DNA of 64,000 nucleotides, from NCBI GenBank assembly GCA_964355175.1, contig CAYHBZ010000002.1:396537-460536 (forward strand), written 5' to 3'. The position numbers and the translations under genes are program-made. Under the pieces are notes generated by a model. It did not search any database. It was given only the letters and a program-made list of their open reading frames with translations, and was not told the origin of the DNA. Origin of the DNA: an uncultured Gammaproteobacteria bacterium (GTDB taxonomy: Bacteria > Patescibacteriota > Patescibacteriia > Magasanikbacterales > GWA2-37-8). Shown here piece after piece: positions 2,839 through 57,105 of the stretch; within the stretch, counting starts at the first letter, position 1; each line of letters begins with the position of its first letter.

Positions 2839-5800
2839 ATGGCTAGAAGTAATGCGGCCAAAAACCCCGCGCTCGAAACAGCAACGCCACCAGTGGTGCT
2901 GGTGGAAGACCTAAAAGAAAAGGAAATAAAACAAAAAAAAGAAATGAAGTTGGAAAAGATTGAGAGTGTCTTTGACGCGGCGAAGGAAAGGGTGAAAGGA
3001 AAAGAAGACCACCTGGCGGCGATGCACGCGGAATTGGTAGGTTTGCTTAATCAGATCCCGGATAAGGAAAATGGGGATTTTACGGTGCGATTACATAGAT
3101 TCGCGGATAGATTTGGAACTATTAAAAACCATTTAGATAATATGGTAGCCGAAAGCCAATTGCCGGAATTGGAATCGGGTGCTTTTGCGCCAGTGGATGC
3201 GACGGAGTCGTCGCCGGTGTCAAAGAGCAATAGTCATATTTCGGAATTAAAAAATTTCAAAGATACTAGTGGTGCTATTTTAAATGGGGCTGTAAATGAA
3301 AAAATAAAAGATAAACCGATTTTTCGCGGCAGCATGGTGTTTAAAAATGGTGACCATTATGTTGGTTTCTCTATTCTCTCAGCTGACGGATCTTATAAAT
3401 TTCACGGTGAAGGTTCTCTAGAAAAGGATGGGGGTAAGATGGCGCTTGAAGGTTTTTTTCAAAATGGCAAATTAAAAAATGGCCATCTGATTGAAAAATT
3501 AGCAGATGGTAGAACAAGAGTGGTATTTGCTGAAAATGAAAAAGCTGCGCGAGTTGAAACTGGATATTTTAATAGCAACAATCAGTTGGAAGGAGTGGGA
3601 GAAATTATTGATCAAAAACACGGTGTTAAAGAGCGTGGAGATTTTGTGAACGGCGAGCTTCGTGATGGTTATGTGGTAGATCTGATAAGCGGTAAACCGT
3701 TGGAAAAATGGGAAAATGGCAAACAAGTCGAAGCGGGAGAAAATTTACCAGCCGAAATCACTAATTCGGAAAAAAGTTTTGACAGAAGACTGGCTGCCAG
3801 AGAAAAAGAAAGAGAAATCAAAGTCGAAGAAGTTTTTGAAGCAGTCTCCGGTCTAGATGGTTTGGTAAACTTTGAGGATGTTTCCAATCAGGTTTTAAAT
3901 GGGAAAATCACTCACACGCCTAAAAGCGAACATATTTTTGACGGAGAAATAAAATCCGACAGTAGAGGCTATAAATACCAAGGCCAGGCTATTTTGGAAA
4001 GTGACGGTGTTTTCAGATTCCACGGCCAAGGAAAGCGTACCGCTGAGATGGCTTATGCAGGAAAGGTAGAACAGGAAGGTGAATTTTCCTATGGAACTTT
4101 TTTGAACGGTGTAGGAATATATACTGGCCAAGATATGGGCTACGGTGCAGATAAAGTTACAGAAAAAATGGAAAATGGCAAGACTGTAGAAAGAGTATTT
4201 TATCTTGAAAAATACAAAGATAAAAAGGATGTATTATTTGCCGGTCAGATGTTTGAAAAAGAATTTTCCAAAGACAATCTATATGTCGGTGAATTCACTA
4301 TGCCTAATGGCTCCGTATATAAAGGAGAGGCCTTTAAAAATAAAAAAGGTCAATTTGAATTGGTGAGCGGAAAGTCAGAGAGAATAAAATCCGCTACAGT
4401 GATAGATAAGTTTAAAGATTTATTTAGATTTGGTAGAAATAAAAAAGAAGAATCAAAATTAGCTACAGCCGAAGTTCAATCGGAAGTTGAGGCAGAAGCA
4501 GAACAGGCTCCGGAAGTTGTGGGCGAACAAGCGTTTCTTCTCGTCACTCCTGGAGGAGAAAATTACGCACTTAAAGGTATCGCCACTGATCAATCCGACG
4601 GCAGTAGGAAATTTAATGGAGAAATAAAAAATATTGATAACGGTGGTGAAGAGACTGGCTTCCAATATTCTGGTGAAGCAATTCTTTCTAGTAACAATGA
4701 AATAACTTTTCATGGCAAAGGAAAAAAGAGTGGCGCCTTTTTTGATGAAACCGGTGAATGGAATATGGGTGAGTTGGAAAATGGTGAAATCCATTCTAAA
4801 GATGGAGAACTTTTGAAAAAATATGTAAATGGACAAGAGGTGGCCGTGACCAAACCAGCTGAGAAGTCCAAAGAAAAAAGTTGGATCGGTAAAAAGTTGG
4901 AATCAGCCAAAGAGTCTGTAGCTTCCGCGTACAATTTTGTCACTACCAAAGAAGGAGCAAGGTTATCCAACCAAGCGGCCTATAAAATTGCCACTGGTTT
5001 TGTTGGTATTAAAATTGGAACGGATATAGCTTTGGCGGCCTATGCTGGCGCTTTGAATAAAGTTGGTGAAAAGGATTGGTTTTCGGAAGCTTTTAAAAAA
5101 CGATTGAAAGAGGAAGCGGCTGTAGCCGGAGAGTATAGTGATGTCTATAAACATCTGGGTGGTAGGGAGCAGATAGCTGCTATCAAAGCTGGATTTGCCG
5201 AATTTATGTCGGCCGTAAATCCAGAAGAAAATGAGAATGTGGAATTGAATCTGGTAGACGAGAAATATTCCGCTCTCAAAGCAAAAATCGAATCCTCCAA
5301 TAGAATCAACCAAGAAGCCAAAGGAAAATTTTTGGCTAAATTGGAAGAGATAAACCAAAAATTTGATCACAGAAATGAAAAGTTGGATGAACAGGAAGTG
5401 GCGGAAGCTAGCGCTTATATGAAAGCCTATATCGTAAATGATACGGCTGCTATGCAGATTGCCAGAGATAGTATCAGTGGCGTGGCCAAAGCGGTGATGG
5501 TTGGTGCCAGTGGCGGTAGCAGTCTTCTTTTGGCAGGAGCTATCGGCAGGGTGATGGGTATGGCCACTACCAAAGTAGTGGAGCGTGCGCAAAAAAGCCG
5601 CAGATTCAATGAACAAGCGGCATTGGAAAACAAAAAGACATTTAACGCCGCCGAGGATATCAAAGCCGCTTTGCTTGAGACAATGCACGGTTTGACTTTT
5701 AGTAAATTTAACGCGGGTAAAGATGTAAAGACCGGCAAAGATCTGGACAAGAAAGCTCTCTTTGCCAATTTTGCTAAATCGTTTGGTAATGTATTGATAA

Positions 5801-7815
5801 GCGCCGGTGTGGTGCTTGGTTTGGAAGGCAAGACTATCGGCAGTGCAATAAATGAGCTTGTCCATAAAATTTCCGGAGATGGATCAAATGCGGAATTTGG
5901 TCGTCAGATGGCGCAAAATGTTTCAGCCAAGGTTGCGGAAGCTAAAGGTGTAAATCTGGGTAAAATACCAGATAATGCTCCGGTCGCTGCCGCAATTGCC
6001 GCCGCCGAAGCCAAAGCAGCTGCTGTGGCAGCGGGCACAGCTTCAGATCATGTAGCGTCCAATGGTTTGGAAAACTCCGCCGATACCGGCGCTGGTGAAA
6101 ATTCAGCTTTGGAGACTTTCTACCAAGAGCATCCAAAATTATCGAGTGATGCCAAAGCTTTTTTTGATGATCTTGTAAAACAACATACTAAATTAAACAA
6201 TCCTGATTTTCTCAAAAAACTTTGGGAAGTTTCTGGTAATTCTAAATCTTCGCTTGATATCACCGGTGCCAAAGTACAGACCGCTATTTTCACCGAGATT
6301 ATTCACAGTGAGGGCAAGGAAGCGGCCGTAGCTTATTTGAAAGATGAAACTCATTTGCACGGTTTGGCTTTGCAAAAATTAGGAAAAGATGGCGTTGAAG
6401 CTTTTGTGGAAAGATATCTCAAAGGTGATGCTGGTGTGCAAGCCAAGTTGGAAAATAAATTATATGGGGCCATGAAAGCTGATATTGATACCGATCTTAC
6501 AAACAAAGGTTTTATCCAGAGACACGGTGATGGATCGGTTCGGGATGTCGGTGCGGCTAAAGGCCGACATTTCTTTGGGGTTGGTAAAGACGGCAAGCCT
6601 GTATTAGACGATGGTAAGGTTTCTAGGTTTACCCATCACAGCCCTGAACATTCGGTGGCCGGAAGTGGTAAAACAGCTTTGGACAAAATAGTATCCGGTG
6701 AAAAGTTACCTAAAGTTGGTTTACATGAACAAAAAATTGGCATTGGTCCAAATATTCAAAAAGGAATTCCAACTGGTTGGGCCGCCGCTAGTGAAGCAGG
6801 TCCAAAAGGGCAGGCTATGGTAAATGGTTTTATGGATGAACAGGGCCATGGAAGATTTTTAATTCATTCTACTGATCCTGGATCAGAATTTGATGTGGAT
6901 AGAGACATGCGCATGGTGGATTCTAATAGCGGCAAAATTTTTGATCTCGATGGAAATCATGTCGGTTATCTAAATGCTCCGATGGCAGAGAATACTCCAA
7001 CACCAGTGTCCGCAACTCCAGGCAGAGCTAGTTGGTCTAGTGGTGGAAATGGTTCTGAAAAAGGTAACGCCACCCAAAATGTAGTCAGAGCAGAAAGATC
7101 TGTTGATCACGGCGGCGGCGGTGCTCCGAAAGAACAAGCGGTAGTAGCTCCTGCAGAACAAGAACCTGCTCCAGAAGAGAAGAAGCCAGTTCGAGAAACA
7201 AGAGCACAAGTAAAAGCTCCCGGTATTGAAGACATGCTAAAAGCCGAACAAACTCTACAAGAAGATATGAAAGTTGGTAAATCCGTGGAGGCTGAACCTG
7301 TTCCGGTGGTAAAAGAAATTACTTCATTGGAGGATGGGCGTGAGGCGATTGCGGCTTTAGAATATTTGGACGGCGAAGAAAAAACTCGTTTGAGTAATTT
7401 TAGTTACTTACTCCAATGGCAACATGATCTCTATGGTCAAAACGGTTCAACTTTGCGCAACATGCTGGAAGGACAGGATGCGTTTGGTACTCTTGGTAAA
7501 GATCAGATCAATAGTATGATGGCCGAGTTGGCTCATAATAATGAACTGGCCAGTCGAGAGTTTATGAGAGCAGTATCAGATCATCAGCCGTATGATAAAA
7601 TTATAGAAAAATTGAATGATAAGATGCCTGGTTACGCGATGTTCCATGATGAGGATAATGCCGGCTTTGTCGATAAGATTATAAAAACGGATCTTTCGCA
7701 AAATGCAGGCGAAAATAAGGCCGCTTTTAGAGATTTGGAACTGGCAAGAGTGAAAGAAATGGTGGATCAGGCCGAGGTAAACAAGCTAATGCAGGCTCGA
7801 CAGGCAAAAAGATAA
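2839..7815 (+). CDS. Giant (1658 aa) protein with MORN-like repeats, coiled-coil and Ala/Gly-rich segments
   Basis: Uninterrupted 5 kb ORF. Repeated 'YxGxfxnGkxhGxGxx' units (e.g. YVGEFTMPNGSVYKGEAF) between about 3.3 and 4.7 kb. Hairpin/U-tract terminator at 7842-7870. Confidence 0.6.
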   Translation: MARSNAAKNPALETATPPVVLVEDLKEKEIKQKKEMKLEKIESVFDAAKERVKGKEDHLAAMHAELVGLLNQIPDKENGDFTVRLHRFADRFGTIKNHLDNMVAESQLPELESGAFAPVDATESSPVSKSNSHISELKNFKDTSGAILNGAVNEKIKDKPIFRGSMVFKNGDHYVGFSILSADGSYKFHGEGSLEKDGGKMALEGFFQNGKLKNGHLIEKLADGRTRVVFAENEKAARVETGYFNSNNQLEGVGEIIDQKHGVKERGDFVNGELRDGYVVDLISGKPLEKWENGKQVEAGENLPAEITNSEKSFDRRLAAREKEREIKVEEVFEAVSGLDGLVNFEDVSNQVLNGKITHTPKSEHIFDGEIKSDSRGYKYQGQAILESDGVFRFHGQGKRTAEMAYAGKVEQEGEFSYGTFLNGVGIYTGQDMGYGADKVTEKMENGKTVERVFYLEKYKDKKDVLFAGQMFEKEFSKDNLYVGEFTMPNGSVYKGEAFKNKKGQFELVSGKSERIKSATVIDKFKDLFRFGRNKKEESKLATAEVQSEVEAEAEQAPEVVGEQAFLLVTPGGENYALKGIATDQSDGSRKFNGEIKNIDNGGEETGFQYSGEAILSSNNEITFHGKGKKSGAFFDETGEWNMGELENGEIHSKDGELLKKYVNGQEVAVTKPAEKSKEKSWIGKKLESAKESVASAYNFVTTKEGARLSNQAAYKIATGFVGIKIGTDIALAAYAGALNKVGEKDWFSEAFKKRLKEEAAVAGEYSDVYKHLGGREQIAAIKAGFAEFMSAVNPEENENVELNLVDEKYSALKAKIESSNRINQEAKGKFLAKLEEINQKFDHRNEKLDEQEVAEASAYMKAYIVNDTAAMQIARDSISGVAKAVMVGASGGSSLLLAGAIGRVMGMATTKVVERAQKSRRFNEQAALENKKTFNAAEDIKAALLETMHGLTFSKFNAGKDVKTGKDLDKKALFANFAKSFGNVLISAGVVLGLEGKTIGSAINELVHKISGDGSNAEFGRQMAQNVSAKVAEAKGVNLGKIPDNAPVAAAIAAAEAKAAAVAAGTASDHVASNGLENSADTGAGENSALETFYQEHPKLSSDAKAFFDDLVKQHTKLNNPDFLKKLWEVSGNSKSSLDITGAKVQTAIFTEIIHSEGKEAAVAYLKDETHLHGLALQKLGKDGVEAFVERYLKGDAGVQAKLENKLYGAMKADIDTDLTNKGFIQRHGDGSVRDVGAAKGRHFFGVGKDGKPVLDDGKVSRFTHHSPEHSVAGSGKTALDKIVSGEKLPKVGLHEQKIGIGPNIQKGIPTGWAAASEAGPKGQAMVNGFMDEQGHGRFLIHSTDPGSEFDVDRDMRMVDSNSGKIFDLDGNHVGYLNAPMAENTPTPVSATPGRASWSSGGNGSEKGNATQNVVRAERSVDHGGGGAPKEQAVVAPAEQEPAPEEKKPVRETRAQVKAPGIEDMLKAEQTLQEDMKVGKSVEAEPVPVVKEITSLEDGREAIAALEYLDGEEKTRLSNFSYLLQWQHDLYGQNGSTLRNMLEGQDAFGTLGKDQINSMMAELAHNNELASREFMRAVSDHQPYDKIIEKLNDKMPGYAMFHDEDNAGFVDKIIKTDLSQNAGENKAAFRDLELARVKEMVDQAEVNKLMQARQAKR

Positions 7816-7841
7816 AAAATCTATATTGTAGTAATCATAGT

Positions 7842-7870
7842 AAAATCCCCTAATGTAGGGGATTTTTATT
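7842..7870 (+). terminator. Rho-independent terminator for the giant ORF
   Basis: aaaatcccctaatgtaggggattttt, a perfect 9 bp stem followed by a U-tract. Confidence 0.6.
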
Positions 7871-7925
7871 ATTATATATTTTTGGCTAATTTTAGCCAAA
7901 ATAATTGATTTATTGGCCATACCCC

Positions 7926-7954
7926 TTGACAAAATTCGTAGATGGTGCTATACT
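7926..7954 (+). promoter_or_regulatory. Near-consensus sigma70 promoter (TTGACA-17-TATACT) with no adjacent CDS
   Basis: TTGACA at 7926-7931, a 17 nt spacer, TATACT at 7949-7954. Followed by about 100 nt of nested hairpins, then the first 12-mer repeat and the high-GC array. Confidence 0.5.
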
Positions 7955-8072
7955 AATCAGTTAAAATCAAATTTAACACCACGAATTATTGCGCCAGGTT
8001 TTGAGAGAGGCCCTAGCAATACATATAGACAGCTAGGTTAATTCTCTCTCAAAGGAGAATTTTTTACTTGTC

Positions 8073-8084
8073 GTTCTTTACAAT
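8073..8084 (+). repeat. 12 bp direct repeat GTTCTTTACAAT, copy 1, at the 5' boundary of high-GC cassette 1
   Basis: Exact 12-mer, also present at 8940-8951 and 10397-10408. Each copy lies 75-170 nt upstream of a high-GC ORF. Confidence 0.55.
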
Positions 8085-8245
8085 AAATAGTGCTGAGCCC
8101 ACATGAGATCAAGAATTTCTTGATTTGATGCGGGTTCAGTGCACACAGCATTGACGTCCTCCGCGATTTTGCGGATTCGTTCAGTGCTGCGTACTGCAGC
8201 CAGGTCACGCGCCCACCTCAGTGGCGTTTCGTTCAGGAGTTTCCG

Positions 8246-8779
8246 ATGACCACCGCAAAGCACCCCGATCCGAACCATCCGGACCCCGGCACCACCGAAG
8301 AGCCCGTCGTCGACAAGGCGAAGGGCGACACGGTGGTGACCACGACGACCACCACGAGCGTTTCGTCGGCCGAGCCCATCAAGGCAAAGCCGGTGGCGAC
8401 CACCGACACCACGGCTGGCAAGACGGCGACCCAAGAGCCCAAGAAGGGTGGCTGGCCGCTCGGGACCATCGCCGGAGCTGTCGTGCTCGGTCTTCTGCTC
8501 CTCGGCGGCGTCTACTGGTTCGGCAGCCACAACAGCAGCACGCCGGTCGTCCCGCCCATCGCGGTCGCCGGTTGCTGTCTTCCCCAGGCCACCGTCGCGA
8601 GCCCCTGCTGCCCGCAACCGCCGGCTCCGCCCCCGCCGCCCGCCCCCGTCGTCAAGAAGAAGACGGTCGGCGAGTGCGTCGCCCAAGCCGTCGCCGGCAT
8701 GGAGGTCGCCCATGAGGACGACCGCCTCGCCGCGATGGACGGCGCCCGCGAAGAATGCGAGGAAGAATACGGCAAGTAG
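8246..8779 (+). CDS. High-GC hypothetical bitopic membrane protein with a Thr-rich N-terminus, one TM helix and a Pro/Cys-rich C-terminus
   Basis: About 68% GC ORF with RBS 'aggag' 8 nt upstream and a GC-rich hairpin downstream. The overlapping minus-strand ORF is judged a GC-shadow ORF. Confidence 0.5.
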   Translation: MTTAKHPDPNHPDPGTTEEPVVDKAKGDTVVTTTTTTSVSSAEPIKAKPVATTDTTAGKTATQEPKKGGWPLGTIAGAVVLGLLLLGGVYWFGSHNSSTPVVPPIAVAGCCLPQATVASPCCPQPPAPPPPPAPVVKKKTVGECVAQAVAGMEVAHEDDRLAAMDGAREECEEEYGK

Positions 8780-8939
8780 CCGTTCCTGTCTCGCGTCGCT
8801 ATGTCGGTTCGGCGGGCCCTCAGCAATGAGGGTCCGCCGGCCGACTGGCTCGAATAGGACCTTTGTAGATTCCACTAGGGAAACTCCAAAGGTCCCCTAG
8901 ATTACATTCTTTTGGAAACAAGAGGATGTTGATAGGAAA

Positions 8940-8951
8940 AGTTCTTTACAA
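8940..8951 (+). repeat. GTTCTTTACAAT, copy 2, at the boundary between cassettes 1 and 2
   Basis: Exact 12-mer. Followed by an 8 bp inverted repeat, ttcccacc...ggtgggaa. Confidence 0.55.
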
Positions 8952-9196
8952 TTAAAACCAACAAAATTTTTTCCCACCTAAAAAGAATTATTATTTATAG
9001 TAATTCACTCTCGGTGGGAAAAAGTGTGGCGGAAATTCCGTTGCATAGCCTCCGACAGAGTCCCAATTGGGGCAAGTGCCCCGCGTGCGGGCTACTCTGT
9101 TACAGCGACCATTTCTGGGAAGCTGACCGAACGGCCCGCACGGCCGGTGTTCCAGTGTCTTGGTTTCGTGGGGTGAAAGTCCCCTGGAGTACAGCG

Positions 9197-10192
9197 ATGA
9201 ACAAGAATTCGAAGTTCCACAACCTCAGCATCTTGCTGACCCTGGCCATGGGGATCATGGTCGCTTCCAATTCCTACGCCGACGTGGCCACGGCTCGCGC
9301 TCGTGCCGAAGCCGCTCGTAGCCAGGCCAATCGGGCTGAGGTGAAAGCGGTCGACGCACAGACTGCGGCCAACGCGGCCAAGACCGGCGCCACCAACGCC
9401 CAGACCGCGGCCGATCAGGCCAAGGTCGAAGCGACCGCGGTGGGCACCAAGGCGGCCACTGACCTCGCTACGGCGATCCGCGCCCTCAACGGTGCGGTCG
9501 GCGGTGCGCGTGCGGCAGCGGTCAACGGTGATCGTCAGCTCGAGCGCAAGTTCAAGGCGGAGGCCGAGCGCCTTCAGACCGAGATCGAAGCGCTCAAGAA
9601 GCGGGCGCAGCACGAGTGTGCGGCGTTCGATGACAAGGGCAGCCAGGCGGCCTGTCTGACCATGCTCGAGAAGATCAACGCCAAGAACGGCGAAGTCACC
9701 ATGCACGGGCAAGACAAGGACACGGAGGTCCAGATCGCCAAGGTGGGACAGCAGTCCAAGGTGGTCCAGGAGATCTTCGACAACGCAAACCAAAACATGG
9801 ACGCCATCAAGGCGATCCAAATGGGTTGCGTCAACCAGGCCTTCGTCGACAAGGACGGCGTCAGCAAGAGCAAGTGGGAATGCCCCAAGGACATGAAGCG
9901 CGGCCCGCAGTTGCGCTACGAGCTCACGAACGTCTCGAAGTACGGCGACCACAGCGTCGTCATCGAGCCGGCCGAGAGCGGTGGCAATTCCAAGTGGGGC
10001 AAAGTGCTCGGCTTCGGCGCCATCGGTGGTGCTGCTGGCGGTGCTCTTGGCTGGGCCTTCTTCCCGAACCATGAAACCATGGAAGATGGCAGCGTCATGC
10101 ACCGGAATTACACCGGTCTCGTCGCTGGCACGGCCATCGGTTTCGTGGTCACGGCGGTGGCCACCCTGGTCATCGAAGAACTGACCGAATAG
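9197..10192 (+). CDS. High-GC secreted/membrane protein with a signal peptide, an Ala-rich helical region and a C-terminal TM anchor
   Basis: Start chosen at MNKNSKFHNLSILLTLAMGIMVASNSYA, a signal-peptide-like sequence. The ORF track begins at 9014. Gly-rich TM helix at the C-terminus. Confidence 0.5.
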   Translation: MNKNSKFHNLSILLTLAMGIMVASNSYADVATARARAEAARSQANRAEVKAVDAQTAANAAKTGATNAQTAADQAKVEATAVGTKAATDLATAIRALNGAVGGARAAAVNGDRQLERKFKAEAERLQTEIEALKKRAQHECAAFDDKGSQAACLTMLEKINAKNGEVTMHGQDKDTEVQIAKVGQQSKVVQEIFDNANQNMDAIKAIQMGCVNQAFVDKDGVSKSKWECPKDMKRGPQLRYELTNVSKYGDHSVVIEPAESGGNSKWGKVLGFGAIGGAAGGALGWAFFPNHETMEDGSVMHRNYTGLVAGTAIGFVVTAVATLVIEELTE

Positions 10193-10396
10193 GTCAACGG
10201 GTGAGGAGATCACCCCAAAGGATTGCAAGTGTGTTGGTTCACTTGCGCCAAATCTCGGTGTAGCTTATCTTGTCCCGCATTCGCGGTACGAGAGAAAGTT
10301 CACTAAACCGGTGGCGTGAACGATGGCTCAAATAGAGCTGTCGGTCACGCCCCAACAACTATCTTCTGTTTTTCAAACAGGGGATTGAGTTGGTAA

Positions 10397-10408
10397 GTTC
10401 TTTACAAT
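10397..10408 (+). repeat. GTTCTTTACAAT, copy 3, at the boundary between cassettes 2 and 3
   Basis: Exact 12-mer. Followed by a 15 bp-stem hairpin, ttctcatacaggaca...tgtcctgtgtgagaa. Confidence 0.55.
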
Positions 10409-10641
10409 TTATTTCGTTAGATTTTCTCATACAGGACATAGGATATTTTTTGTATCTTGTGTCCTGTGTGAGAAGCCCCCAGTGGGGGTTGCCTGGGTGA
10501 AAACCCGACTAGGTCGGGGCGTTCGCTCCGGCAATTCCTCACTAGGGTGGTAAAAACGCCATCCGGACGGGTCAACTTCGACCTTTTCGGTAAAGTAGCA
10601 GTGTCTTTCTTTGTCCGCCCTTTAGTGGGCCGGAGGTTCTG

Positions 10642-12063
10642 ATGCGTAACCGGTTTCAATTGGTCGCGACTCTCGCGATGGCGGCTGCAGCCTGTGCAGC
10701 GTGTGGTGTCATCGAACATCCGGCCGATGCGGTCGTGATCGTGGTCGAAAAAGACGCCAGCAGCCAGGATGTCCAGCAGGACAACGGTCCGGCGCAGCAG
10801 CCCGAGATCGCGCAGACGGCCGACATCGCGCAGGACAACGGTCCGGCGACGAAGCCTGAGTGCGCGGTCGACAGCGACTGCGACGACAAGAACCCCTGCA
10901 CGACGGACGTCTGCGGCAGCAACGCCTGCGTCCACGTGGCCAACTCGGTCTCGTGCGACGACGGCAACGCCTGCACCAGCAACGACAAGTGCGGCTCCGA
11001 GAAGTGCTCGGGTGACCAGAAGGTCTGCGACGACAACAACCCCTGCACCGACGACGGCTGCGTCAGCGACGGCACCTGCCTGCACGGCGTCAACATCGTC
11101 AACTGCGACGACAGCGACGCCTGCACGGAAAAGGACCAGTGCGCCAACGGTAAGTGCGTCGGCCAGGTGAAGTCGTGCGACGACAAGGACAACTGCACGA
11201 CGGAATCGTGTGACAAGCTCAACGGGTGCTCGTCCACTCCGGTCGTCTGCCAGGACGCCGGGGATCCGTGCACGACGGAATCGTGCGACAAGGCAACGGG
11301 CAAGTGCTCGTCCACCACCGACTGCGACGACAAGGACGTCACCACGTTGGATGCCTGTGAACCGCTGCTCGAGACCGTGGGAATGGAGAAATGCCTCCAC
11401 ATCAAGATGCAGACCAAGTGCACCAAGAATGCGGATTGCGACGAGGACGGCGATCCGTGTTCGTTCGAGTTCTGTTCCCAGATCGGCTACTGCGCCAGCA
11501 AGTGGAAGTTGTGCGATGACGGAGACTACTGCACCCAGGACGAATGCGTCCCTCAGGCCGACTACGCCTGGTGCAAGAGCACTCAATACTCATGCGACGA
11601 CTACAACGCCTGCACGCTGGACTCCTGCACCAACGGCTACTGCCAACACAAGGGCAACGCCGCCATGTGCGACGACAAGGACTCCACCACCGCCGACTCG
11701 TGCAACCCTTCCCAGGGCTGCGTCAACACGCCGATTCCTCAACCCGGCGTGCCGAGCTCGACTCCTCCCTCGAATCCCTCGACCTGTGCGGCCTGGGGAG
11801 CGTGGATTTACTTGCCCACGGGCAACTGGCGCGGCGGCTATGACCTGACCGGTTCGTCTTCGCAAGAAACGGACCTGACAATCAGCGTCGACCAGTGGTA
11901 CGGCTTCAGCAACGCTCATTCTGTGTGGGCGTGGCTCAAGCCGTGGGGCAGTGCGGTACCGGCAAGCGTCAAGTGCACTGATCGGTGTGGTGTGGTCTTC
12001 CCCGCGAAGATCAGTGCCATGGCGGGTGGCTTCATCGCCATCTGCAGCACCGACCAGAAGTAG
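10642..12063 (+). CDS. High-GC putative lipoprotein with about 10 tandem Cys-rich repeats (C-D-D-x-N-x-C-T-x-D-x-C), resembling Myxococcales-type cysteine-rich repeats
   Basis: Signal peptide ending AAACAAC (lipobox-like). Repeated units 'CDDKNPCTTDVC' and 'CDDNNPCTDDGC'. RBS 'ggagg'. Internal DNA tandem repeats mirror the protein repeats. Confidence 0.6.
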   Translation: MRNRFQLVATLAMAAAACAACGVIEHPADAVVIVVEKDASSQDVQQDNGPAQQPEIAQTADIAQDNGPATKPECAVDSDCDDKNPCTTDVCGSNACVHVANSVSCDDGNACTSNDKCGSEKCSGDQKVCDDNNPCTDDGCVSDGTCLHGVNIVNCDDSDACTEKDQCANGKCVGQVKSCDDKDNCTTESCDKLNGCSSTPVVCQDAGDPCTTESCDKATGKCSSTTDCDDKDVTTLDACEPLLETVGMEKCLHIKMQTKCTKNADCDEDGDPCSFEFCSQIGYCASKWKLCDDGDYCTQDECVPQADYAWCKSTQYSCDDYNACTLDSCTNGYCQHKGNAAMCDDKDSTTADSCNPSQGCVNTPIPQPGVPSSTPPSNPSTCAAWGAWIYLPTGNWRGGYDLTGSSSQETDLTISVDQWYGFSNAHSVWAWLKPWGSAVPASVKCTDRCGVVFPAKISAMAGGFIAICSTDQK

Positions 12064-12330
12064 GCGGGGCTCAGGGGGTCTAACGGAAAAAGTTTTTGCT
12101 CTTTGGTAAAAGCAAACGGAAGGAGGTGTTCCTTTCGATAGGCCATTTCGGCCACCCATGCCAGAGGCGAGCGATCGCTAAAGGCTGGTCAACTAGGGGT
12201 GGTGTTGCTTCACCGCACACCACCCCGACCATCTCTAGCTCACAATATCTGTTGTGATCTGAAGATGGAAATAGCAATATGTCCATGACAAAAATACCAC
12301 CCTTCTCTCGGGCGGTTTTTTGTTTTTTAA

Positions 12331-12357
12331 GATTCCTCGCTACGCTCGGAATGACAA
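12331..12357. repeat. Half-copy of the short palindromic element family (gattcctc...ctcggaatgacaa)
   Basis: Matches the 3' arm of the full nested-hairpin element at 14847-14904. Confidence 0.4.
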
Positions 12358-12358
12358 C

Positions 12359-13741
12359 TTAGACCTTGGCACTCCAATAACCCCATACTGCCCACCACCA
12401 CCAGATCACCGGGGTGTGGTGAAGCATGTTATCAGAAGCACTCAAAGTGAGATAAACAAAGATGCTAGTGATGAATACAAAATTTGTCCAAGCATTTTTT
12501 TTGCCCCATTTTATTTCTCGATAAAGTAAACTGATAAAAATTCCAATATACAGAGCTAGGCCTATAAGTCCGGATTCAAACCCAATTTTGAGATAATCAT
12601 TATGGGCCTCGGAAGTGGAGTCCCAGATGTTTTCCACCCCTTTATTATCATCCCAAACTTTGGCAAAGCTACCATAGCCGTAGCCAGTGAGAGGGTGTTT
12701 GCTCCAAAGTGGAATTACTTTATTAAAAAGATCCGCGCGCCAAGAGATAGAGTCGGCTTCCATGTTGCGGCTGGTCATACGGGCCACGAGCGGGCTTTGC
12801 TGTAGGTTTACATTTAGGGTAGTTTTGAGCCAATAATTTATTGGGAAGAATAGTCCATACAATATTAAAATTCCGGCGGTAAAAATAATGGTTTTTTCGC
12901 GAGCATATTTGAGGCCAATAGCCAATAAAAATATGGCCAAACCAATCCAGGCAATGCGGGTATAGGTAAGAGCGATAGCTACGGCCAAGAATACCATGGT
13001 CAAAACATATAGTTCACCTTTGGATTCTTTAAATAAATTTGGTTTAAATTTGAGCAGTTTGCTGGCGTGCTCTAGGTAATTATGATATTTATGAAACAAA
13101 AATATAAATAAAATTAGGGAAAAAGTGGCTAGGATATTGGGGTGGGCGAAAGTGCCATAGATGCGATTGGGGGTGCCGTCGATATCCATGCCGGTTTTGG
13201 TAATAAACTGGTAAATAGCCAGTAAGAATGTGGCAATGCCGGAAGAAATAAACAACCAAAAGAAAATTTTATCAAAAAATTCACCGTGTTTGCGGCGTAA
13301 AATATAGCTCATTCCAAACAGGGCAAATAGGTTGGCGCCTTTGAGAGTTTCGGTGATAGTGGCCATTGTATCAAAGCTCCAGAAAAAAGTGGCGCCACTC
13401 CAGACTATAAAAGCTATCCATATTCCGGTCAAAGGAACATTTTTAAATTCGCTAAAATGTTTGTAAAAAAATATTACGGACCAGGCTAATAGTAACAATG
13501 ATACGGCCGCGTTGAGATTGAGGTGAATGGCGTTGTAGGAAAAAATGACATAGTCGCGCCAGTAGTCCATGGTCGGGCGGGCTAGCAATAGGGTGAGTAG
13601 GGCATAGTCGCCAAAGAACTTGTAGAGTACGATGACCACGATGGCCAAGAGGGCTAGGATATCGCCGCCGGTGGTGGGATTGAAAATGGTAAAAATTAGT
13701 AGTCCGCCGATGAGCCACTGGGTAAGGGAGAGCTTGTTCAT
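12359..13741 (-). CDS. O-antigen ligase/polymerase-like polytopic membrane protein (Wzy_C-like)
   Basis: 460 aa with 10 or more TM helices and a large periplasmic-type loop. Sits in the glycan cluster. Confidence 0.55.
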   Translation of the reverse strand: MNKLSLTQWLIGGLLIFTIFNPTTGGDILALLAIVVIVLYKFFGDYALLTLLLARPTMDYWRDYVIFSYNAIHLNLNAAVSLLLLAWSVIFFYKHFSEFKNVPLTGIWIAFIVWSGATFFWSFDTMATITETLKGANLFALFGMSYILRRKHGEFFDKIFFWLFISSGIATFLLAIYQFITKTGMDIDGTPNRIYGTFAHPNILATFSLILFIFLFHKYHNYLEHASKLLKFKPNLFKESKGELYVLTMVFLAVAIALTYTRIAWIGLAIFLLAIGLKYAREKTIIFTAGILILYGLFFPINYWLKTTLNVNLQQSPLVARMTSRNMEADSISWRADLFNKVIPLWSKHPLTGYGYGSFAKVWDDNKGVENIWDSTSEAHNDYLKIGFESGLIGLALYIGIFISLLYREIKWGKKNAWTNFVFITSIFVYLTLSASDNMLHHTPVIWWWWAVWGYWSAKV

Positions 13742-18125: not shown

Positions 18126-18154
18126 TTGACAGGCGCTGGTTTTTTTGATTTAAT
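18126..18154 (+). promoter_or_regulatory. sigma70-like promoter (TTGACA-17-TTTAAT) for high-GC gene 4
   Basis: TTGACA at 18126-18131. Homologous in sequence to the promoter/5'UTR at 19331. Confidence 0.4.
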
Positions 18155-18306
18155 AATAAGTCGTTTGTTCTTTATTTGGCAGGATAATTTTGGATTAAAA
18201 TTTTTAATTCAGAGTTATCGTGCCAACTTTCTCAATGCGTGTCGGCGAAATGCGTCGATATGTAAAGAGAGGTGCGAGAGCCTACATGGTAGGCAGGAGA
18301 GCAGGA

Positions 18307-19122
18307 ATGGCAGACAGCAGCCACAACGTTACTCAGGTCGGCATCACCGTCGGGCCGCCCAACGCCGATCTCGGCAGTGTGGTGGTTCGTCAGGAGGCGG
18401 CCAGGGCGGATCTCAATGAGCGGCGTACGCATCTCAGCTTGGTTGTCAAGCCCTCGGTCGATGATCTGGTCGCGCGGCTGAATGTCGAGCGGCAGGAAGT
18501 CGACCGCATCGGCGCGCTGGTCGATGCGGTAGAGCGCGAACAGGCGAAGAGCGTCAAGCACTTCGAATCGACGCTCGGCGGGCAGGCGCGGCTCTGGAAG
18601 AAGGGTTTCGACGCCCATGAGCGCTCGATCTTCTGGGTCAAGCTCCTCGGCGTCGTCGGCCTGGTCCTGGTCGGTATCGTCCTGGTCCTGAACCTGTCGT
18701 CCTCCTCGGACATCTCCACGGCCAAGTCGGAAGCCATCTCGGCCAAGACCACCGTGGCGGAGTTCAAGAAGGCCACCCAAGGCGAGGTCGTCAAGATCAA
18801 GAAGAGGCTCGATGCCAACAAGCTCGACATGGATCAGCTCAAGGATCAGATCAAGGTCGTCGGGCTCAAGGCTGACAAGAGCGTCGTCACTCGCATGGGC
18901 GAAGAGCTCAAAGAAGCCAACATCGAGCAGGACGGTCGGATCCAGGACATCGCCACCGCGATCATGGGCAAGGCCGACATAGCCGATCTCAAGAGCGTGA
19001 GGAGCGCAGTCGCGCAGGTTCGCCGGGCCAACGGCAAGGTGAACACGAAGATGACCAGGCTCGAAGCTCAGGTCCTGGAGCTCAAGGCCCAACTCCAGGC
19101 CCAACAGCCCAAGACCATGTAG
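18307..19122 (+). CDS. High-GC bitopic membrane protein with one TM helix and a coiled-coil C-terminal domain
   Basis: ATGGCAGAC start with RBS 'aggagag'. The ORF track starts at 18220. TM helix 'VKLLGVVGLVLVGIVLVLNL'. Confidence 0.5.
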   Translation: MADSSHNVTQVGITVGPPNADLGSVVVRQEAARADLNERRTHLSLVVKPSVDDLVARLNVERQEVDRIGALVDAVEREQAKSVKHFESTLGGQARLWKKGFDAHERSIFWVKLLGVVGLVLVGIVLVLNLSSSSDISTAKSEAISAKTTVAEFKKATQGEVVKIKKRLDANKLDMDQLKDQIKVVGLKADKSVVTRMGEELKEANIEQDGRIQDIATAIMGKADIADLKSVRSAVAQVRRANGKVNTKMTRLEAQVLELKAQLQAQQPKTM

Positions 19123-19193
19123 TCCGTTCCCGATCTGTTCGGGCACTTGTAGTTTAGCCTTGATTTCTGAAGGCAAAAGCTCGGTGAGGACGC

Positions 19194-19300
19194 AAAATCC
19201 CCCCAAGGGTGTGTCGTTTACTCGACACTACCTGCTTAGTTCGCAAAAAATTGTTTGCTGAGCAGAATAAAAAATCCGCTATTATGGTGGATTTTTTAAT
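19194..19300 (+). repeat. Conserved ~110 nt structured 3' element, family M1, copy a
   Basis: Aligns along its length with 20125-20238. The internal hairpin changes from gtgtcg/cgacac to gtgccgac/gtcggcac with pairing preserved. Ends in a hairpin plus U-tract. Confidence 0.55.
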
Positions 19301-19330
19301 CTAAAATATGCTGTTTTTAGGTCAGTAGTA

Positions 19331-19359
19331 TTGACAAAGTAGGATTTTTATGTTTTAAT
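19331..19359 (+). promoter_or_regulatory. sigma70-like promoter (TTGACA-17-TTTAAT) for high-GC gene 5
   Basis: TTGACA at 19331-19336. The 5'UTR is homologous to that of gene 4 (shared ttgttcttt...attaaaattttt). Confidence 0.4.
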
Positions 19360-19504
19360 AGTTCATTAGATTGTTCTTTTTAATCAATTCGCGCGACAAT
19401 TATAAATTAAAATTTTTCAATTTATAATCGTCGTGCGAATTTCAGTTTATCAATGACGGCCAGTCGGAGGTTCCGATTGGTTCAGCTCTTTCTGCGAGGT
19501 GAGC

Positions 19505-20074
19505 ATGGTTGATTTCAATCCCCCGGATCCAGTGGATCCAGAGAAGAAAAAGAAGCCTTCGTCGGCTGTGGAGACAGACCACAATTGGGAAGCCTGGGCC
19601 AACGATAATTCGGTCGATGACGGCAGTCATCCTCTGCCTGGTGAAGCCGAATACGTCGGACGGTCCGACCTTCCCATGACACGGGCACAGAAAGAGCGCA
19701 TCGCCGCGATCGTAGTCGGTACGGCCTTCCTGGTGTTGGTTTTCTTTGTCATCAATTTCGCTATCGGCAACAAGCTCAAGCATTCTGAAGCGGCCTCGTC
19801 CAACGAGGCTGGCAAGCAGAGCGCTCAGGCAAGTGCCGAAGTAGAATTGAAGGCAGAAGAAGCCGCCTCAGAGCAGGATCATACGGTCTCGCTGCCGGAT
19901 CACGCTTCGCAGGAAGATGATCTGGACGATGCTCGCGCGACCATCAAGGTCGTCGGTTTGGAGAAACGGCGCGTTCGAGATCCAGAGATGGAGCGGATCG
20001 CCGCAACCATCAAGATCGTGCCACTGCGTGTCAGTCCTGTCGCGGTACCGCTTCCAGCGGCCGCTACTCAGTAG
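19505..20074 (+). CDS. High-GC bitopic membrane protein with one TM helix
   Basis: ATG at 19505, alternatively the GTG at 19499. TM helix 'IAAIVVGTAFLVLVFFVINFAI'. No family recognised. Confidence 0.5.
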   Translation: MVDFNPPDPVDPEKKKKPSSAVETDHNWEAWANDNSVDDGSHPLPGEAEYVGRSDLPMTRAQKERIAAIVVGTAFLVLVFFVINFAIGNKLKHSEAASSNEAGKQSAQASAEVELKAEEAASEQDHTVSLPDHASQEDDLDDARATIKVVGLEKRRVRDPEMERIAATIKIVPLRVSPVAVPLPAAATQ

Positions 20075-44493: not shown

Positions 44494-44522
44494 TTGACAG
44501 GTTTCCGTTTTAGATATATAAT
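44494..44522 (+). promoter_or_regulatory. Consensus sigma70 promoter TTGACA-17-TATAAT
   Basis: About 160 nt upstream of the DUF3494 gene. Lies in the divergent region, which also holds the 13 bp inverted repeat aatacttgtttaa / ttaaacaagtatt (candidate ArsR operator). Confidence 0.5.
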
Positions 44523-44682
44523 TGAATAGTTAAACAAGTATTTAATTATAATTATCTATGCTCGATGATAAAGAATTGCGAAAAGCACGCCGGATACTGA
44601 GCAAAACTAATAAAAACATGGCGGTGGCATTAAAGATAGCATAAGAGAGTGGATTTAGTAGCTAATTAATTGAAATTATTAT

Positions 44683-45738
44683 ATGAAAAAAAGTAAAAAA
44701 ACAGCAGTGTTCTTTCTAGTAGCCCTTTCGTTCGCGCTTGGGCTTGTCGGTCCACTGGCCGCATTGGCTGGTCCAACCAAGATTGAACTTTTGTCGGCCG
44801 ATAATTTTGCCATCCTTGCCGGTTCCACCATTACCAACATTGGATCGAGCATCGTTGGCGGAGATCTTGGCTTGAGCCCGGGTACCGCGGTCACCGGGTT
44901 TCCACCGGGAATTGTGAACGGAACCCAGCATGTGGCTAATGCCGTTGCCGCTCAGGCGCAGTTAGATGTCACTACCGCTTATACGACAGCGCTTGGATTT
45001 GCGTCTATTTCCACTATACCAACCGAACTTGGCGGAACGACTAAAACCCCTGGTGTTTATGATTCCGCGGCTGGGACTTTTGGAATCACTGGTACACTAA
45101 CGCTCGACGGTGAGGGTGATGCGAACGCGGTGTTTATTTTTAAAACCGCTACCACTTTTATCATGGCCGCAGGGAGTAAGGTGGTTCTTGTGAACGGCGC
45201 GCAAGCGTGTAACATCGTTTGGCAAGTAGGTAGTTCAGCGACGCTTGGAACAAATTCTACGTTACAAGGCAGTATTCTAGCGTTTACTTCCGCCACGCTT
45301 AATACTGGCGCACATGTCCAAGGGCGAGTATTAGCTCGCAATGGCGCCGTTACTTTAGATTCTAGTACTGTTACCAAAGCTACTTGTGCTGTGCCTGTTG
45401 TGGAACCAATTGTGGTATCAGCGCCTCAGCCCACATCGACTCCTAATTTTTCGACATCCACTCCTACATCCGTGATAATACCATCGTTTTCAACTTCAAC
45501 ATCAATGCCAGCGCCCAGCACAACACCATTGGTATTCTCAGCCACTGTGACAGCTTCGCCTACACTGAATGTTGCTCCGCTTGTGTCTACATTTATTCCT
45601 GATTTTCCCAATACCGGTCTTTCTCCACAAGAGACAAGTATGTGGTGGGGTAGTCGATTGTTTGTCGCTAGCGCGCTTTTGATTTTGACTTTATTGTTGG
45701 TAATCTTAAAAAAACGTTCATCATCTTTGGGTGTTTAA
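44683..45738 (+). CDS. Secreted DUF3494 (ice-binding-like) domain protein with a C-terminal sortase sorting signal (FPNTG, hydrophobic helix, KKRSS)
   Basis: Signal peptide followed by 'FAILAGSTITNIGSSIVGGDLGLSPG', typical of DUF3494. C-terminal 'FPNTG' plus TM helix and basic tail. Confidence 0.65.
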   Translation: MKKSKKTAVFFLVALSFALGLVGPLAALAGPTKIELLSADNFAILAGSTITNIGSSIVGGDLGLSPGTAVTGFPPGIVNGTQHVANAVAAQAQLDVTTAYTTALGFASISTIPTELGGTTKTPGVYDSAAGTFGITGTLTLDGEGDANAVFIFKTATTFIMAAGSKVVLVNGAQACNIVWQVGSSATLGTNSTLQGSILAFTSATLNTGAHVQGRVLARNGAVTLDSSTVTKATCAVPVVEPIVVSAPQPTSTPNFSTSTPTSVIIPSFSTSTSMPAPSTTPLVFSATVTASPTLNVAPLVSTFIPDFPNTGLSPQETSMWWGSRLFVASALLILTLLLVILKKRSSSLGV

Positions 45739-46342
45739 TATGTCTAGTCGTGTAAAGATGAGTCTCGTTGCCTTAGTTGTTTTTTTCTTCATTCTCGGCC
45801 TGTCTGTCTCTGAACTCTATACGAAGGTACCTTTGTCCGCAAATACGCTTGCAACCTCGACGCAGTTGATAGTCCCATCAGAGCAAACGCTTCTAGGCTT
45901 GCCGATACATCTCACGATCCCACGGATCCATGTCGATGCCTCCCTTGAATATGTTGGCCTCACAGCGACCGGGGCAGTGGATGTGCCAACAGTGCCAGCG
46001 AATCCAGCCTGGTACTCGCTGGGGCCGCGTCCGGGGCAAACTGGCAGTGCGGTGATTGTCGGGCATTTCGGCTGGAAAAAAGGGATGCCAGCGGTTTTTG
46101 ATGATTTGTCTACTCTGCGTAAGGGCGATAAGTTGTATGTCAAAAATGAACACGGAGCGACTACTACTTTTATAGTACGCGAGTTGCGAAGCTATAGCGC
46201 GCATGACAGTGCTGTGGAGGTATTTAGCTCTAGTGATGGGAAAGCGCATCTGAATTTGATCACCTGTGAAGGAACTTGGAATAAAATTGAGGAGAGTTAT
46301 TCAAAGCGACTGGTGGTATTTGCTGATTTAGAAGATAGATAA
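45731..46342 (+). CDS. Sortase (transpeptidase)
   Basis: N-terminal TM helix, catalytic His region and 'LNLITCEG' (TLxTC motif). Confidence 0.75.
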   Translation: MFNMSSRVKMSLVALVVFFFILGLSVSELYTKVPLSANTLATSTQLIVPSEQTLLGLPIHLTIPRIHVDASLEYVGLTATGAVDVPTVPANPAWYSLGPRPGQTGSAVIVGHFGWKKGMPAVFDDLSTLRKGDKLYVKNEHGATTTFIVRELRSYSAHDSAVEVFSSSDGKAHLNLITCEGTWNKIEESYSKRLVVFADLEDR

Positions 46343-56121: not shown

Positions 56122-56206
56122 GGAGAGGTCGCATAGTGGCCGAGTGCGCCGCCTTGGAAAGGCGGTATACCGCAAGGTATCGAGGGTTCAAATCCCTCTC
56201 TCTCCG
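56122..56206 (+). tRNA. tRNA-Ser(GGA)
   Basis: Hand fold with anticodon loop TTGGAAA, long variable arm and T-arm GAGGG-TTCAAAT-CCCTC. No encoded CCA. Hairpin terminators at 56236-56270 and 56300-56330. Confidence 0.7.
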
Positions 56207-56405
56207 CTGGGTCACGCTTATATGAGCAAAGGGTTCATATTCCAAAAACATCTCGACTAAGTCGGGATGTTTTTTTACCAGATAAAAAAATAATTCTTCA
56301 TAAAAACACACCGTCGGGTGTGTTTTTATATTGACAAAAATGTATTTTTAGTATAGGCTCTAGCCTGATCGTTCTCGCGGATTTCTCGCGCTACAGGAGG
56401 ACATC

Positions 56406-56774
56406 ATGGCAGATTCTCTGCCGTTCCAAGAAGATCTGCGTAAGCCATTCCACATCTCAGTCTGCGACCGGATCGCTCTCTGCCTCACGGCAATGAGCAT
56501 CTCCGGTGGAAGGGAGATCCCGCTCGGCATCCAGGAGGTGACCAGAGACCTGGATCTCTTGGACAAGACCAAGGTCCCGGCCAAGGAACTGCCCAGTGTG
56601 ACAAAGGCCCTCTACGGCCTGCGGGTGATGTACGGCCCTCTCATGCCGACGGTTTCTCAGCGCCTGACCCAATCGATCGACCTCTTGGTCGTGTATCAAG
56701 AGGAGCTGGCCGAGGATGGCAAGCTGGATCGCGACCTCGTGTGGTTGCCGCCTGTCGTCGACCCGGTAGCCTAG
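56406..56774 (+). CDS. High-GC hypothetical protein (122 aa)
   Basis: RBS 'aggagga' 6 nt upstream. Long imperfect hairpin plus U-tract downstream (56890-56960). Confidence 0.45.
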   Translation: MADSLPFQEDLRKPFHISVCDRIALCLTAMSISGGREIPLGIQEVTRDLDLLDKTKVPAKELPSVTKALYGLRVMYGPLMPTVSQRLTQSIDLLVVYQEELAEDGKLDRDLVWLPPVVDPVA

Positions 56775-57041
56775 CTGGTCTGTAGATTTTCACCCGGTCT
56801 TCGTCTATGTCCGGGTTGAGAGGTGTTCATACACCACTCCGTCCCGACTTAGTCGAGACGTGAATCACCGCAAGGTAGTGACGAGAACATCAGACATTCA
56901 GACTGTTCGCGCTCACTTAAGATTATAACTTGATTATAGTTTTAAGTGACGAACAGTCTTTTTGTTTTTTCTAAAGGATATTTTATAGATACGGATGGCA
57001 ATACTTTTGGTTTGCATCAGCCGGATGAAAAGGCGGCATAA

Positions 57042-57070
57042 TTGACTTTTTTGAATTTAATCGCTAAAAT
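57042..57070 (+). promoter_or_regulatory. sigma70 promoter TTGACT-17-TAAAAT
   Basis: Counted directly. About 35 nt upstream of the ATG at 57106. Confidence 0.5.
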
Positions 57071-57105
57071 GGTGTTCAGCCATTTTGGCTTTTTGGAGTT
57101 TCGCC

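Follow-up and report, generated by a model that had tools for sequence, protein, structure and literature searches.

A conserved leader RNA with two competing folds, a candidate transcription attenuator, ahead of fast-evolving envelope genes in Candidatus Magasanikbacteria

What does a near-consensus promoter drive when the sequence behind it folds into nested hairpins and offers no open reading frame (ORF)? The question is raised by positions 7926-8084 of a 64,000-nt stretch of contig CAYHBZ010000002.1 (hereafter, the window), a segment of an ordinary chromosome of Candidatus Magasanikbacteria (candidate phyla radiation (CPR)/Patescibacteria) that carries, among other genes, Mur ligases, a penicillin-binding protein, Suf genes and transketolase. 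The element lies at the left edge of the first of three GC-rich islands in a window of ~41% GC overall, and is flanked by the terminator of a gene for a 1658-aa protein (2839-7815) and by three genes on the + strand. A sequence-only reading had taken it for either a promoter of a cassette array, similar to the Pc promoter of integrons, or a small regulatory RNA (sRNA). We find that the element makes up the 5' third of a leader of 285 nt that extends from the transcription start to the ATG of the first of the three genes (gene 1), and tentatively propose that its first ~105 nt act as a transcription attenuator. The promoter and the start of gene 1 are laid out as follows.

7926-7954, + strand: promoter P1, with the -35 hexamer TTGACA (7926-7931), a 17-nt spacer, TG at 7946-7947 and the -10 hexamer TATACT (7949-7954)
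8235-8239 and 8246-8248, + strand: the Shine-Dalgarno (SD) sequence AGGAG and, 6 nt further on, the ATG of gene 1, neither of which varies among the 7 aligned sequences

P1, which the sequence-only reading had correctly recognized, is of the sigma-70 type, with 11 of the 12 hexamer positions matching the consensus and an extended -10 TG, and is the top promoter-like site in 7000-13000 by sequence scan. Judging from the position of the -10 hexamer, transcription would start at about 7959-7961. No further sigma-70-like promoter was found by the scan on the + strand within 7955-13000; being the only one, P1 most likely serves genes 1-3 as one unit, and the three genes together with the 285-nt leader most likely form a single operon, with a predicted end near 12296-12330. 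The statement that no credible protein start follows the promoter holds inside 7926-8084 and fails beyond it, where the conserved ATG at 8246, preceded by its AGGAG, opens a gene for a 177-aa protein with homologues in the same position in relatives. Hence, of the earlier description, a structured non-coding RNA of ~105 nt (7960-8065) behind a sigma-70-type promoter stands, whereas the notion of an orphan element without an ORF does not.

How firmly is this leader kept? Syntenic loci were collected from Logan, ENA and NCBI assemblies using homologues of gene 1 and of neighbouring proteins; the full-length loci are L002, L003/L004 and L005, the partial ones L001, L006 and L007, and L016 and L017 (GCA_943357105.1) are more divergent. 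The hexamers, the spacing and the TG of P1 are identical in six lineages (including L002, L003/L004, L005, L016 and L017). Compared with L003, the leader region from the -35 hexamer to the ATG (measured over 7930-8229) is 90-95% identical, and housekeeping genes reach 82-84%. Synonymous substitution is saturated, with rates (dS) of 0.8-1.5 across all genes: in the same comparison, housekeeping genes show dS of ~0.8-1.5 and a nonsynonymous rate (dN) of 0.03-0.10, and the genes of the island show dS of 0.92-1.0 and dN of 0.36-0.58. Identity of the gene 1 protein falls to 56% in L003 and to 27% in L017, and the leader module of L017 is 78% identical, which is the level of housekeeping coding DNA. 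Because identity from the promoter to the ATG exceeds that of the genes despite saturated dS, the leader is under strong purifying selection. Conservation in relatives also indicates that the sequence features are more than chance, given that a scan and shuffled controls alone are no proof of function. The earlier reading had named conservation in related genomes as a check; the element turned out to be far better conserved than the flanking genes, and the absence of conservation that would have told against it was not seen. With respect to the genes themselves, dN/dS is ~0.4-0.6 in the island and 0.04-0.08 in housekeeping genes.

The predicted hairpins of the leader are the following, in order from the 5' end.

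7960-7977, + strand: H0, the 5'-terminal hairpin GUUAAA/UUUAAC, in the minimum free energy (MFE) fold of every lineage
7987-8021, + strand: P-alt, a hairpin with outer stem UAUUGC/GCAAUA, inner stem GGUUUU/GAGGCC and loop GAGA; candidate anti-antiterminator or sensor
7999-8054, + strand: H1, a nested hairpin, with 7999-8010 paired to 8043-8054 (outer) and 8012-8017 to 8032-8037 (inner); candidate antiterminator
8040-8065, + strand: T, the terminator-like hairpin AAUUCUCU/GGAGAAUU, with 8040-8047 paired to 8054-8061, loop CUCAAA and a U-tract at 8060-8065
8090-8142, + strand: H2, a long three-part hairpin with a basal helix of 14 pairs, directly 3' of a 12-nt box (see below)
8143-8192, + strand: H3, a hairpin with two compensatory pairs and several changes that pair only as G-U wobble
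8209-8227, + strand: H5, a small GC-rich hairpin before the ribosome-binding site, with its pairs (alignment columns 258-277) retained in all 5 sequences

The nested hairpin that had been noticed from the letters alone is indeed present at 7999-8054: the repeats tttgagagag (8000-8009) and ctctctcaaa (8044-8053) enclose cctagc (8012-8017) and gctagg (8032-8037). Folded alone (7996-8058), it reaches -21.5 kcal/mol, with z = -3.1 and 1 of 200 shuffles as good. The AAAGGAG sequence and the U-tract were likewise confirmed, at 8051-8057 and 8060-8065, respectively; AAAGGAG spans the loop and the 3' arm region of T, and the U-tract is a run of six U. The 109-nt unit 7960-8068 folds with z = -3.6, the part of the leader from 8073 on with z = -5.7 (the same value for the window and for L017), and the whole leader (7961-8260) with z = -5.8 (0 of 200 shuffles as good). 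Selection on structure is best seen in H2, where all 14 pairs of the basal helix persist across five distinct sequences, with both partners substituted in 4 of the pairs; the observed score is matched by only 2 of 500 shuffles, slid controls show 31-45% pairing, and the distal stem is wholly rewritten in L017. Substitutions of U/C opposite G and of A/G opposite U pair only as G-U and would be mismatched on the other strand, which points to selection acting on the + strand RNA.

The hairpin of the earlier reading, H1, represents one of two folds that compete. Its 3' arm (8043-8054) shares positions with the 5' arm and the loop of T (8040-8053), so that H1 and T are mutually exclusive, as are H1 and P-alt. 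The pyrimidine run CUCUCUCAAA (8044-8053) thus either serves H1 or pairs locally with GGAGAA(UU) at 8054-8061 to form the 8-bp stem of T. An alternative hairpin that uses the terminator strand and is conserved together with it is the hallmark of an attenuator, and both pairings are possible in all six lineages. Despite replacement of the H1 inner stem by CUUA/UAAG in L017, the GAGAGAG/CUCUCUC complementarity of H1 is retained in all lineages. In L016, the P-alt outer stem has another sequence (AUUUGUC/GAUAAAU) and still pairs, and a longer, unrelated 5' hairpin stands in place of H0. The U-tract after T is present in 7 of 7 sequences, and at the T pair 8042-8059 four lineages have U-A and two have C-G. 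The MAFFT placement of L016 is off by one column in T and P-alt, so that covariation counts for these helices are reliable only on alignment A5; for L016 and L017, P-alt and H1 were assessed by folding each sequence under constraints. Constrained folding gave the following energies for the two states, with differences of 1-8 kcal/mol.

Window: H1 -25.4, P-alt plus T -20.3 kcal/mol
L002: H1 -23.9, P-alt plus T -22.4 kcal/mol
L005: H1 -22.9, P-alt plus T -21.8 kcal/mol
L017: H1 -21.3, P-alt plus T -24.2 kcal/mol
L016: H1 -25.3, P-alt plus T -33.3 kcal/mol

In prefix folding, P-alt forms first in the three divergent types (the window, L017 and L016). T with its tail passes a terminator scan in L017 (6 bp, 3 GC, TTTTTT) and in L016 (9 bp, 3 GC, TTTT). 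The reading that we favour, although we would not put it at quite an even chance, is that the first ~105 nt of the leader constitute a transcription attenuator, the 5' module of a leader RNA that acts in cis. Under this model, transcription would start near 7960 at P1, and H0 would fold first, followed by P-alt (7987-8021). The GAGAGAG run within P-alt could then pair instead with CUCUCUC (8044-8050), giving H1; where P-alt persists, CUCUCU would pair with GGAGAA (8054-8059), so that T would form ahead of the six U and RNA polymerase would terminate. P-alt would accordingly play the part of an anti-antiterminator, H1 that of the antiterminator and T that of the terminator, and the balance might be tipped by a protein, a small ligand, a 30S subunit or the speed of transcription. 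Read-through RNA would continue past the box GUUCUUUACAAU and H2-H5 to the ribosome-binding site. The sequences show the conservation of the leader, its structures, the mutual exclusivity of the folds and the lack of a second sigma-70-like promoter, whereas the start site, the termination at T, the read-through, the switching itself and the role of the box are what we infer.

Past T, the element ends with a 12-nt box that recurs before each of the three genes.

8073-8084, + strand: box copy A, GTTCTTTACAAT, the last 12 bases of the element
8905-8952, + strand: second composite unit, consisting of the hairpin CAUUCUUUUG-GAAA-CAAGAGGAUG (8905-8928), a 12-nt spacer and box B (8941-8952)
10361-10408, + strand: third composite unit, consisting of a pyrimidine-rich 5' arm, the 3' arm AACAGGGGAU, an 11-nt spacer and box C (10397-10408)

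The three exact copies in the window (at 8073, 8941 and 10397) compare with 0.01 expected, and the box is present at the corresponding sites in all relatives. Copies A, B and C each lie between two hairpins: one that ends 11-12 nt before the box, its 5' arm rich in pyrimidines and its 3' arm purine-rich and SD-like, and a long one downstream. The distance between the box and the upstream hairpin differs in L016, where the box lies ~70 nt further downstream, and at site C of L017, which makes the box an independent module; it is read in different frames at A, B and C and is thus not a coding motif. The box is probably a processing, pausing or protein-binding signal that would give each message a hairpin-protected 5' end. 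Several other identities were tried and rejected. As a sigma-70 -10 hexamer (TACAAT, with TTGAnn as the -35), the box would have a spacing of just 12 nt; as read from the sequence, it does not fit a sigma-54, sigma-H, Cheo/LexA, Spo0A or DnaA box; and as an attC core it fails, with GTTCTTT carrying pyrimidines where GTTRRRY requires purines. TRAP-like (G/U)AG repeats in the leader were also considered and dropped, their spacing being irregular.

Variants of the box (GTTCTTTATTTG, GTTCTTTTTAAT and GTTCTTTTAAAA) occur in the second GC-rich island, 5-14 nt past the -10 hexamer of promoters of the TTGACA-17-TTTAAT type. Such second-island promoters (18126-18180 and 19331-19385 in the window, 14135-14180 in L003 and 14210-14255 in L017) have the form TTGACA-17-TTTAAT or TATGTT and carry the variant GTTCTTTA/T... 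within 5-14 nt. In these leaders, an AT-rich hairpin follows the box variant, with arms that covary between paralogous leaders, and conservation is 55-80%, far below that of the first-island leader. A degenerate box, GTTCTC, lies downstream of the promoter of the third island, TTGACA-17-TAGGCT.

Several observations weigh against the attenuator. In the window, T is weak (-6.7 kcal/mol; 8 bp with 2 G-C pairs; z = -1.4) and fails a generic terminator scan, and at equilibrium the RNA is in the H1 fold with P = 0.997, the corresponding value for L016 being ~0; such strong differences in energy balance between lineages are odd for a tuned switch. In T, only one column covaries, without statistical significance (35 of 500 shuffles do as well), and the outer stem of H1 is invariant and so provides no covariation test. 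The comparison comprises only six lineages, three of them truly divergent, and the L016 contig stops before gene 1. Furthermore, T-like hairpins without a U-tract occur at boxes B and C, so that T may be part of a repeated hairpin-plus-box unit with another function.

Part of this evidence would be accommodated by a constitutive structured 5' untranslated region (UTR), with no regulated termination, in which the consensus promoter, H0, AAAGGAG and H2-H5 would make the mRNA long-lived and very abundant, similar to the leaders of surface-layer and outer-membrane proteins or to the stabilizing SD-like sequence STAB-SD. We regard this alternative as doubtful, although it carries appreciable weight. 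The start site falls at the base of H0; 190 nt ahead of the ATG there is an AGGAG core identical to that of the ribosome-binding site of gene 1, STAB-SD being likewise an SD within a long 5' UTR (PMC4113751); the window RNA is in the H1 fold at equilibrium with GGAGAA unpaired; and boxes B and C, too, are preceded by purine-rich SD-like tracts. A mere stabilizer, however, gives no reason for the U-tract and the T pairing to be kept, with compensatory change, in all lineages, and in L017 and L016 the most stable fold combines T with P-alt and buries the SD-like tract in T. The small regulatory RNA of the earlier reading is not our best reading: we consider it unlikely that 7960-8065 is a free-standing ~105-nt sRNA that ends at T with its U-tract and acts in trans, with gene 1 transcribed from a separate, non-canonical promoter at the box. 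A consensus promoter and a terminator-like 3' end do belong to the unit, the terminated fold is the MFE structure in L016 and L017, the shifted box of L016 shows that the two modules are separable, boxes B and C precede genes without an upstream consensus promoter, and TACAAT matches TATAAT at 5 of 6 positions. Yet TACAAT lacks a -35 hexamer at a usable spacing (at B and C, the upstream TTGAnn is only 12 nt away, and A has none), and no site passes the promoter scan of 7955-13000. In addition, the conserved GAGAGAG/CUCUCUC pairing defeats the terminator, no target complementarity was found, and the leader past T is equally conserved and runs straight into the gene.

Could the conservation instead reside at the level of DNA, the intergenic blocks being homology arms for the exchange of hypervariable cassettes and the folds incidental? 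Four non-coding blocks of the island (7900-8250, 8800-9010, 10150-10570 and 12070-12340) are 82-98% identical to L003, whereas identity in the intervening genes is 40-80%; in relatives, assemblies often end at the island borders; and the proteins look mosaic, with the window and P0001 sharing the C-terminal type and not the N-terminal half. Against this stand the dS of the island genes (0.92-1.0), which equals that of housekeeping genes and indicates genes of the same age that were not swapped in, the compensatory or G-U substitutions in H2, H3 and T, which imply selection on the + strand RNA, and the L017 leader, which has diverged as much as housekeeping genes and shows no sign of recent transfer; we find this explanation quite improbable. 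Still less probable is ribosome-mediated attenuation by an upstream ORF (uORF) of 12 codons (MSFFTINSAEPT) that runs from TTG at 8068 to TGA at 8106 and would open H2. This uORF begins 10 nt after AAGGAG, with TTG or GTG as the start in all five sequences of the window type and TTG in L017, and the box is read as F-F-T in the same frame in the window type and in L017. However, L006 and L007 have no start codon, L016 has none in frame (ATG, GTG or TTG), the frames of the box at copies B and C differ or lack an upstream start, and conservation of the amino acids is explained by that of the nucleotides. As for the integron promoter, which the earlier reading had suggested, a strong outward promoter ahead of three short, foreign-looking genes, each preceded by a repeat, does recall a cassette array. 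No integrase or recombinase Pfam domain occurs among the window's 54 ORFs of 110 aa or more, and the absence of intI and attC on this ordinary chromosome refutes the reading; the box, the only repeated element, is not an attC core, has no inverse core and lies upstream rather than downstream of the genes. All relatives carry the same three genes in unchanged order, with saturated dS, indicative of an old, vertically inherited array, and the probability that we leave to a Pc-type promoter is close to nil.

If the attenuator remains our preferred reading, which genes would it control, and how is the unit delimited? The features around the leader are as follows.

7842-7871, + strand: intrinsic terminator of the 1658-aa gene, with the 11-bp stem AAAATCCCCTA/TAGGGGATTTT and a T-rich tail, at the start of the intergenic region
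7880-7901, no strand assigned: the perfect palindrome TTTTGGCTAATTTTAGCCAAAA (TTTTGGCTAA-TT-TTAGCCAAAA), between the upstream terminator and P1
8246-8779, + strand: gene 1, 177 aa, a single-pass membrane protein, parts of which are Thr-rich or CCPQ/Pro-rich; GC 0.69, GC at third codon positions (GC3) 0.87
9197-10192, + strand: gene 2, 331 aa, a coiled-coil protein with a signal peptide, the ATG being chosen before the signal peptide; GC3 0.82
10642-12063, + strand: gene 3, 473 aa, with Cys-rich Dicty_CTDC repeats; GC3 0.84
12296-12330, no strand assigned: closing hairpin and T-rich run that end the three-gene unit, shared with a convergent Wzy_C gene

The structure of the upstream terminator is preserved in relatives despite differing sequence, and every lineage retains the palindrome arms (GGCT...AGCCAAAA); the L016 palindrome is 11 nt further from the -35 hexamer, about one helical turn. 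The palindrome could be a second, bidirectional terminator (an insulator) or a binding site for a regulator or another protein. Apart from the Dicty_CTDC repeats, domain searches assigned genes 1-3 to no known family, and the 331-aa product of gene 2 is the form called on other contigs. Their GC3 of 0.82-0.87 contrasts with 0.34-0.49 in neighbouring genes. More broadly, genes of the three islands (8246-12063, 18220-20074 and ~56400-58750) have GC3 of 0.62-0.92, compared with 0.34-0.49 in all neighbours, and high island GC3 is retained in every relative (L002, L003, L005 and L017) although dS is ~1. A second codon composition is actively maintained in a subset of envelope genes.

Antisense ORFs of 265 aa (8078-8875, - strand) and 324 aa (18232-19206, - strand) oppose the GC-rich genes and are of the spurious type picked by gene callers in GC-rich DNA; in the gene 3 region of L017 and L024, database gene calls are on the wrong strand; and the exact products of genes 1 and 3 are absent from the records of a 953-kb contig that carries proteins of the window. 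Elsewhere in the window, a tRNA-Ser(GGA) gene (56122-56207) is followed by two intrinsic terminators and then by the TTGACA-17-TAGGCT promoter that opens the third GC-rich island (56210-56400). At 44494-46342, another strongly promoted envelope locus, of normal composition, consists of a consensus promoter (TTGACA-17-TATAAT at 44494), a gene for a secreted Ice_binding-like protein and a sortase gene.

The island is also where assemblies tend to end. Look-ups of the radical-SAM neighbour yielded many contigs, all of which end inside or before the GC-rich island, and Logan contigs from related strains (L025-L032, L019, L020 and L024) often stop at island borders, which suggests within-population hypervariation. 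The non-coding blocks 8800-9010, 10150-10570 and 12070-12340 hold GC-rich hairpins without U-tracts as well as hairpin-and-box units. The ends of two short contigs from unrelated samples and assemblers, L001 (8064-8929) and L021 (8925-12330), fall no more than 5 nt apart at the hairpin that precedes box B; L001 begins just after T, and L021 ends at the T-run after gene 3. Such ends may reflect coverage lost at AT-rich spots or, should the samples be RNA, the true ends of transcripts. A search with the leader module (nhmmer) returned one copy per locus and no paralogue in 302 kb of sequence. In GTDB genome contigs, nothing was found for an invariant 22-mer or for a neighbouring 353-aa protein; an invariant 19-mer had seven matches in JGI metagenome contigs, all by chance; and in IMG/VR the promoter pattern had 0 matches and the H1 5' arm one chance match inside a phage gene. 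A profile search with gene 1 homologues added no members, and the C-terminal third of the 1658-aa protein, used as a query, returned nothing.

CPR bacteria are uncultured, depend on hosts and have tiny genomes, and, to our knowledge, almost nothing is known about their gene regulation or regulatory RNAs. The leader is a candidate bistable RNA under strong selection, predicted to control hypervariable envelope proteins, the molecules most likely to mediate contact with the host cell. The untranslated regions of the island match the most constrained housekeeping genes in conservation, in a setting where GC3 is 0.62-0.92 compared with 0.34-0.49 in the rest of the genome; a deviant codon composition kept through saturating divergence is an evolutionary puzzle in its own right. 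At a more speculative level, the attenuator, the GUUCUUUACAAU box and the flanking hairpins might be parts of one undescribed, lineage-specific expression system for compositionally separate genes, a proposal that we rate as rather unlikely. Were it true, a dedicated route of antitermination or RNA processing, together with a shared operator or processing signal, would serve fast-evolving, GC3-rich envelope genes. For its part, the 12-nt box of the leader would give a handle on a whole regulon.

How does this leader compare with known systems? Across the whole window, Rfam 15 at the gathering threshold reports two tRNAs only, and thus no rRNA gene. At E <= 10, a search of 7780-8300 gave nothing inside 7955-8245 beyond chance-level matches, and a search of 7955-8075 (121 nt) gave a single 7-bit match to a long non-coding RNA and no PyrR site, riboswitch or known sRNA. 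The box of the leader shares with ops/JUMPstart elements, which are read by NusG paralogues such as RfaH, LoaP and UpxY, the character of a short, strand-specific and repeated element in the leaders of envelope or polysaccharide clusters, here the 12-nt GTTCTTTACAAT; the sequences are unrelated, and the likeness would be one of functional analogy only. An integron shares with this locus a strong promoter before several short genes of atypical composition, and differs from it in that the locus has no integrase, attI or attC and keeps a fixed, old gene order. In the long 5' UTR of Bacillus thuringiensis cry3A, the STAB-SD is an SD that does not initiate translation and that blocks RNase J1 (PMC4113751). 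The present leader resembles it in having a distant promoter and an SD-like sequence far upstream of the start codon. AAAGGAG (8051-8057) shares its AGGAG core with the true ribosome-binding site, and the TTG 10 nt downstream of it opens a 12-codon ORF that is not conserved in L006/L007 or L016. Unlike STAB-SD, however, the SD-like tract of this leader is an arm of a hairpin.

With riboswitch-type platforms, the leader has in common mutually exclusive hairpins that share a pyrimidine strand, a U-tract after the terminator and a small early 5' hairpin as a possible sensor, and it differs from them in matching no known aptamer, in a gene context that points to no ligand and in an energy balance that varies widely between lineages. 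Closest in logic are the leaders of the pyr operon, between whose genes related hairpin units recur. Likeness extends to the three-tier arrangement of hairpins, to the position in the 5' leader and to the sensor hairpin, which carries a ...CCAG...GAGAGAGG... purine run, as does the pyr sensor. In the B. subtilis pyr leader, an upstream anti-antiterminator hairpin sequesters the 5' arm of the antiterminator and thereby lets the terminator form (PMC4347634). In contrast to pyr, the leader described here has no PyrR match in Rfam, is followed by envelope genes rather than by genes for pyrimidine enzymes, and has intergenic copies without a U-tract. The leader is a new, lineage-restricted RNA of a known mechanistic kind.

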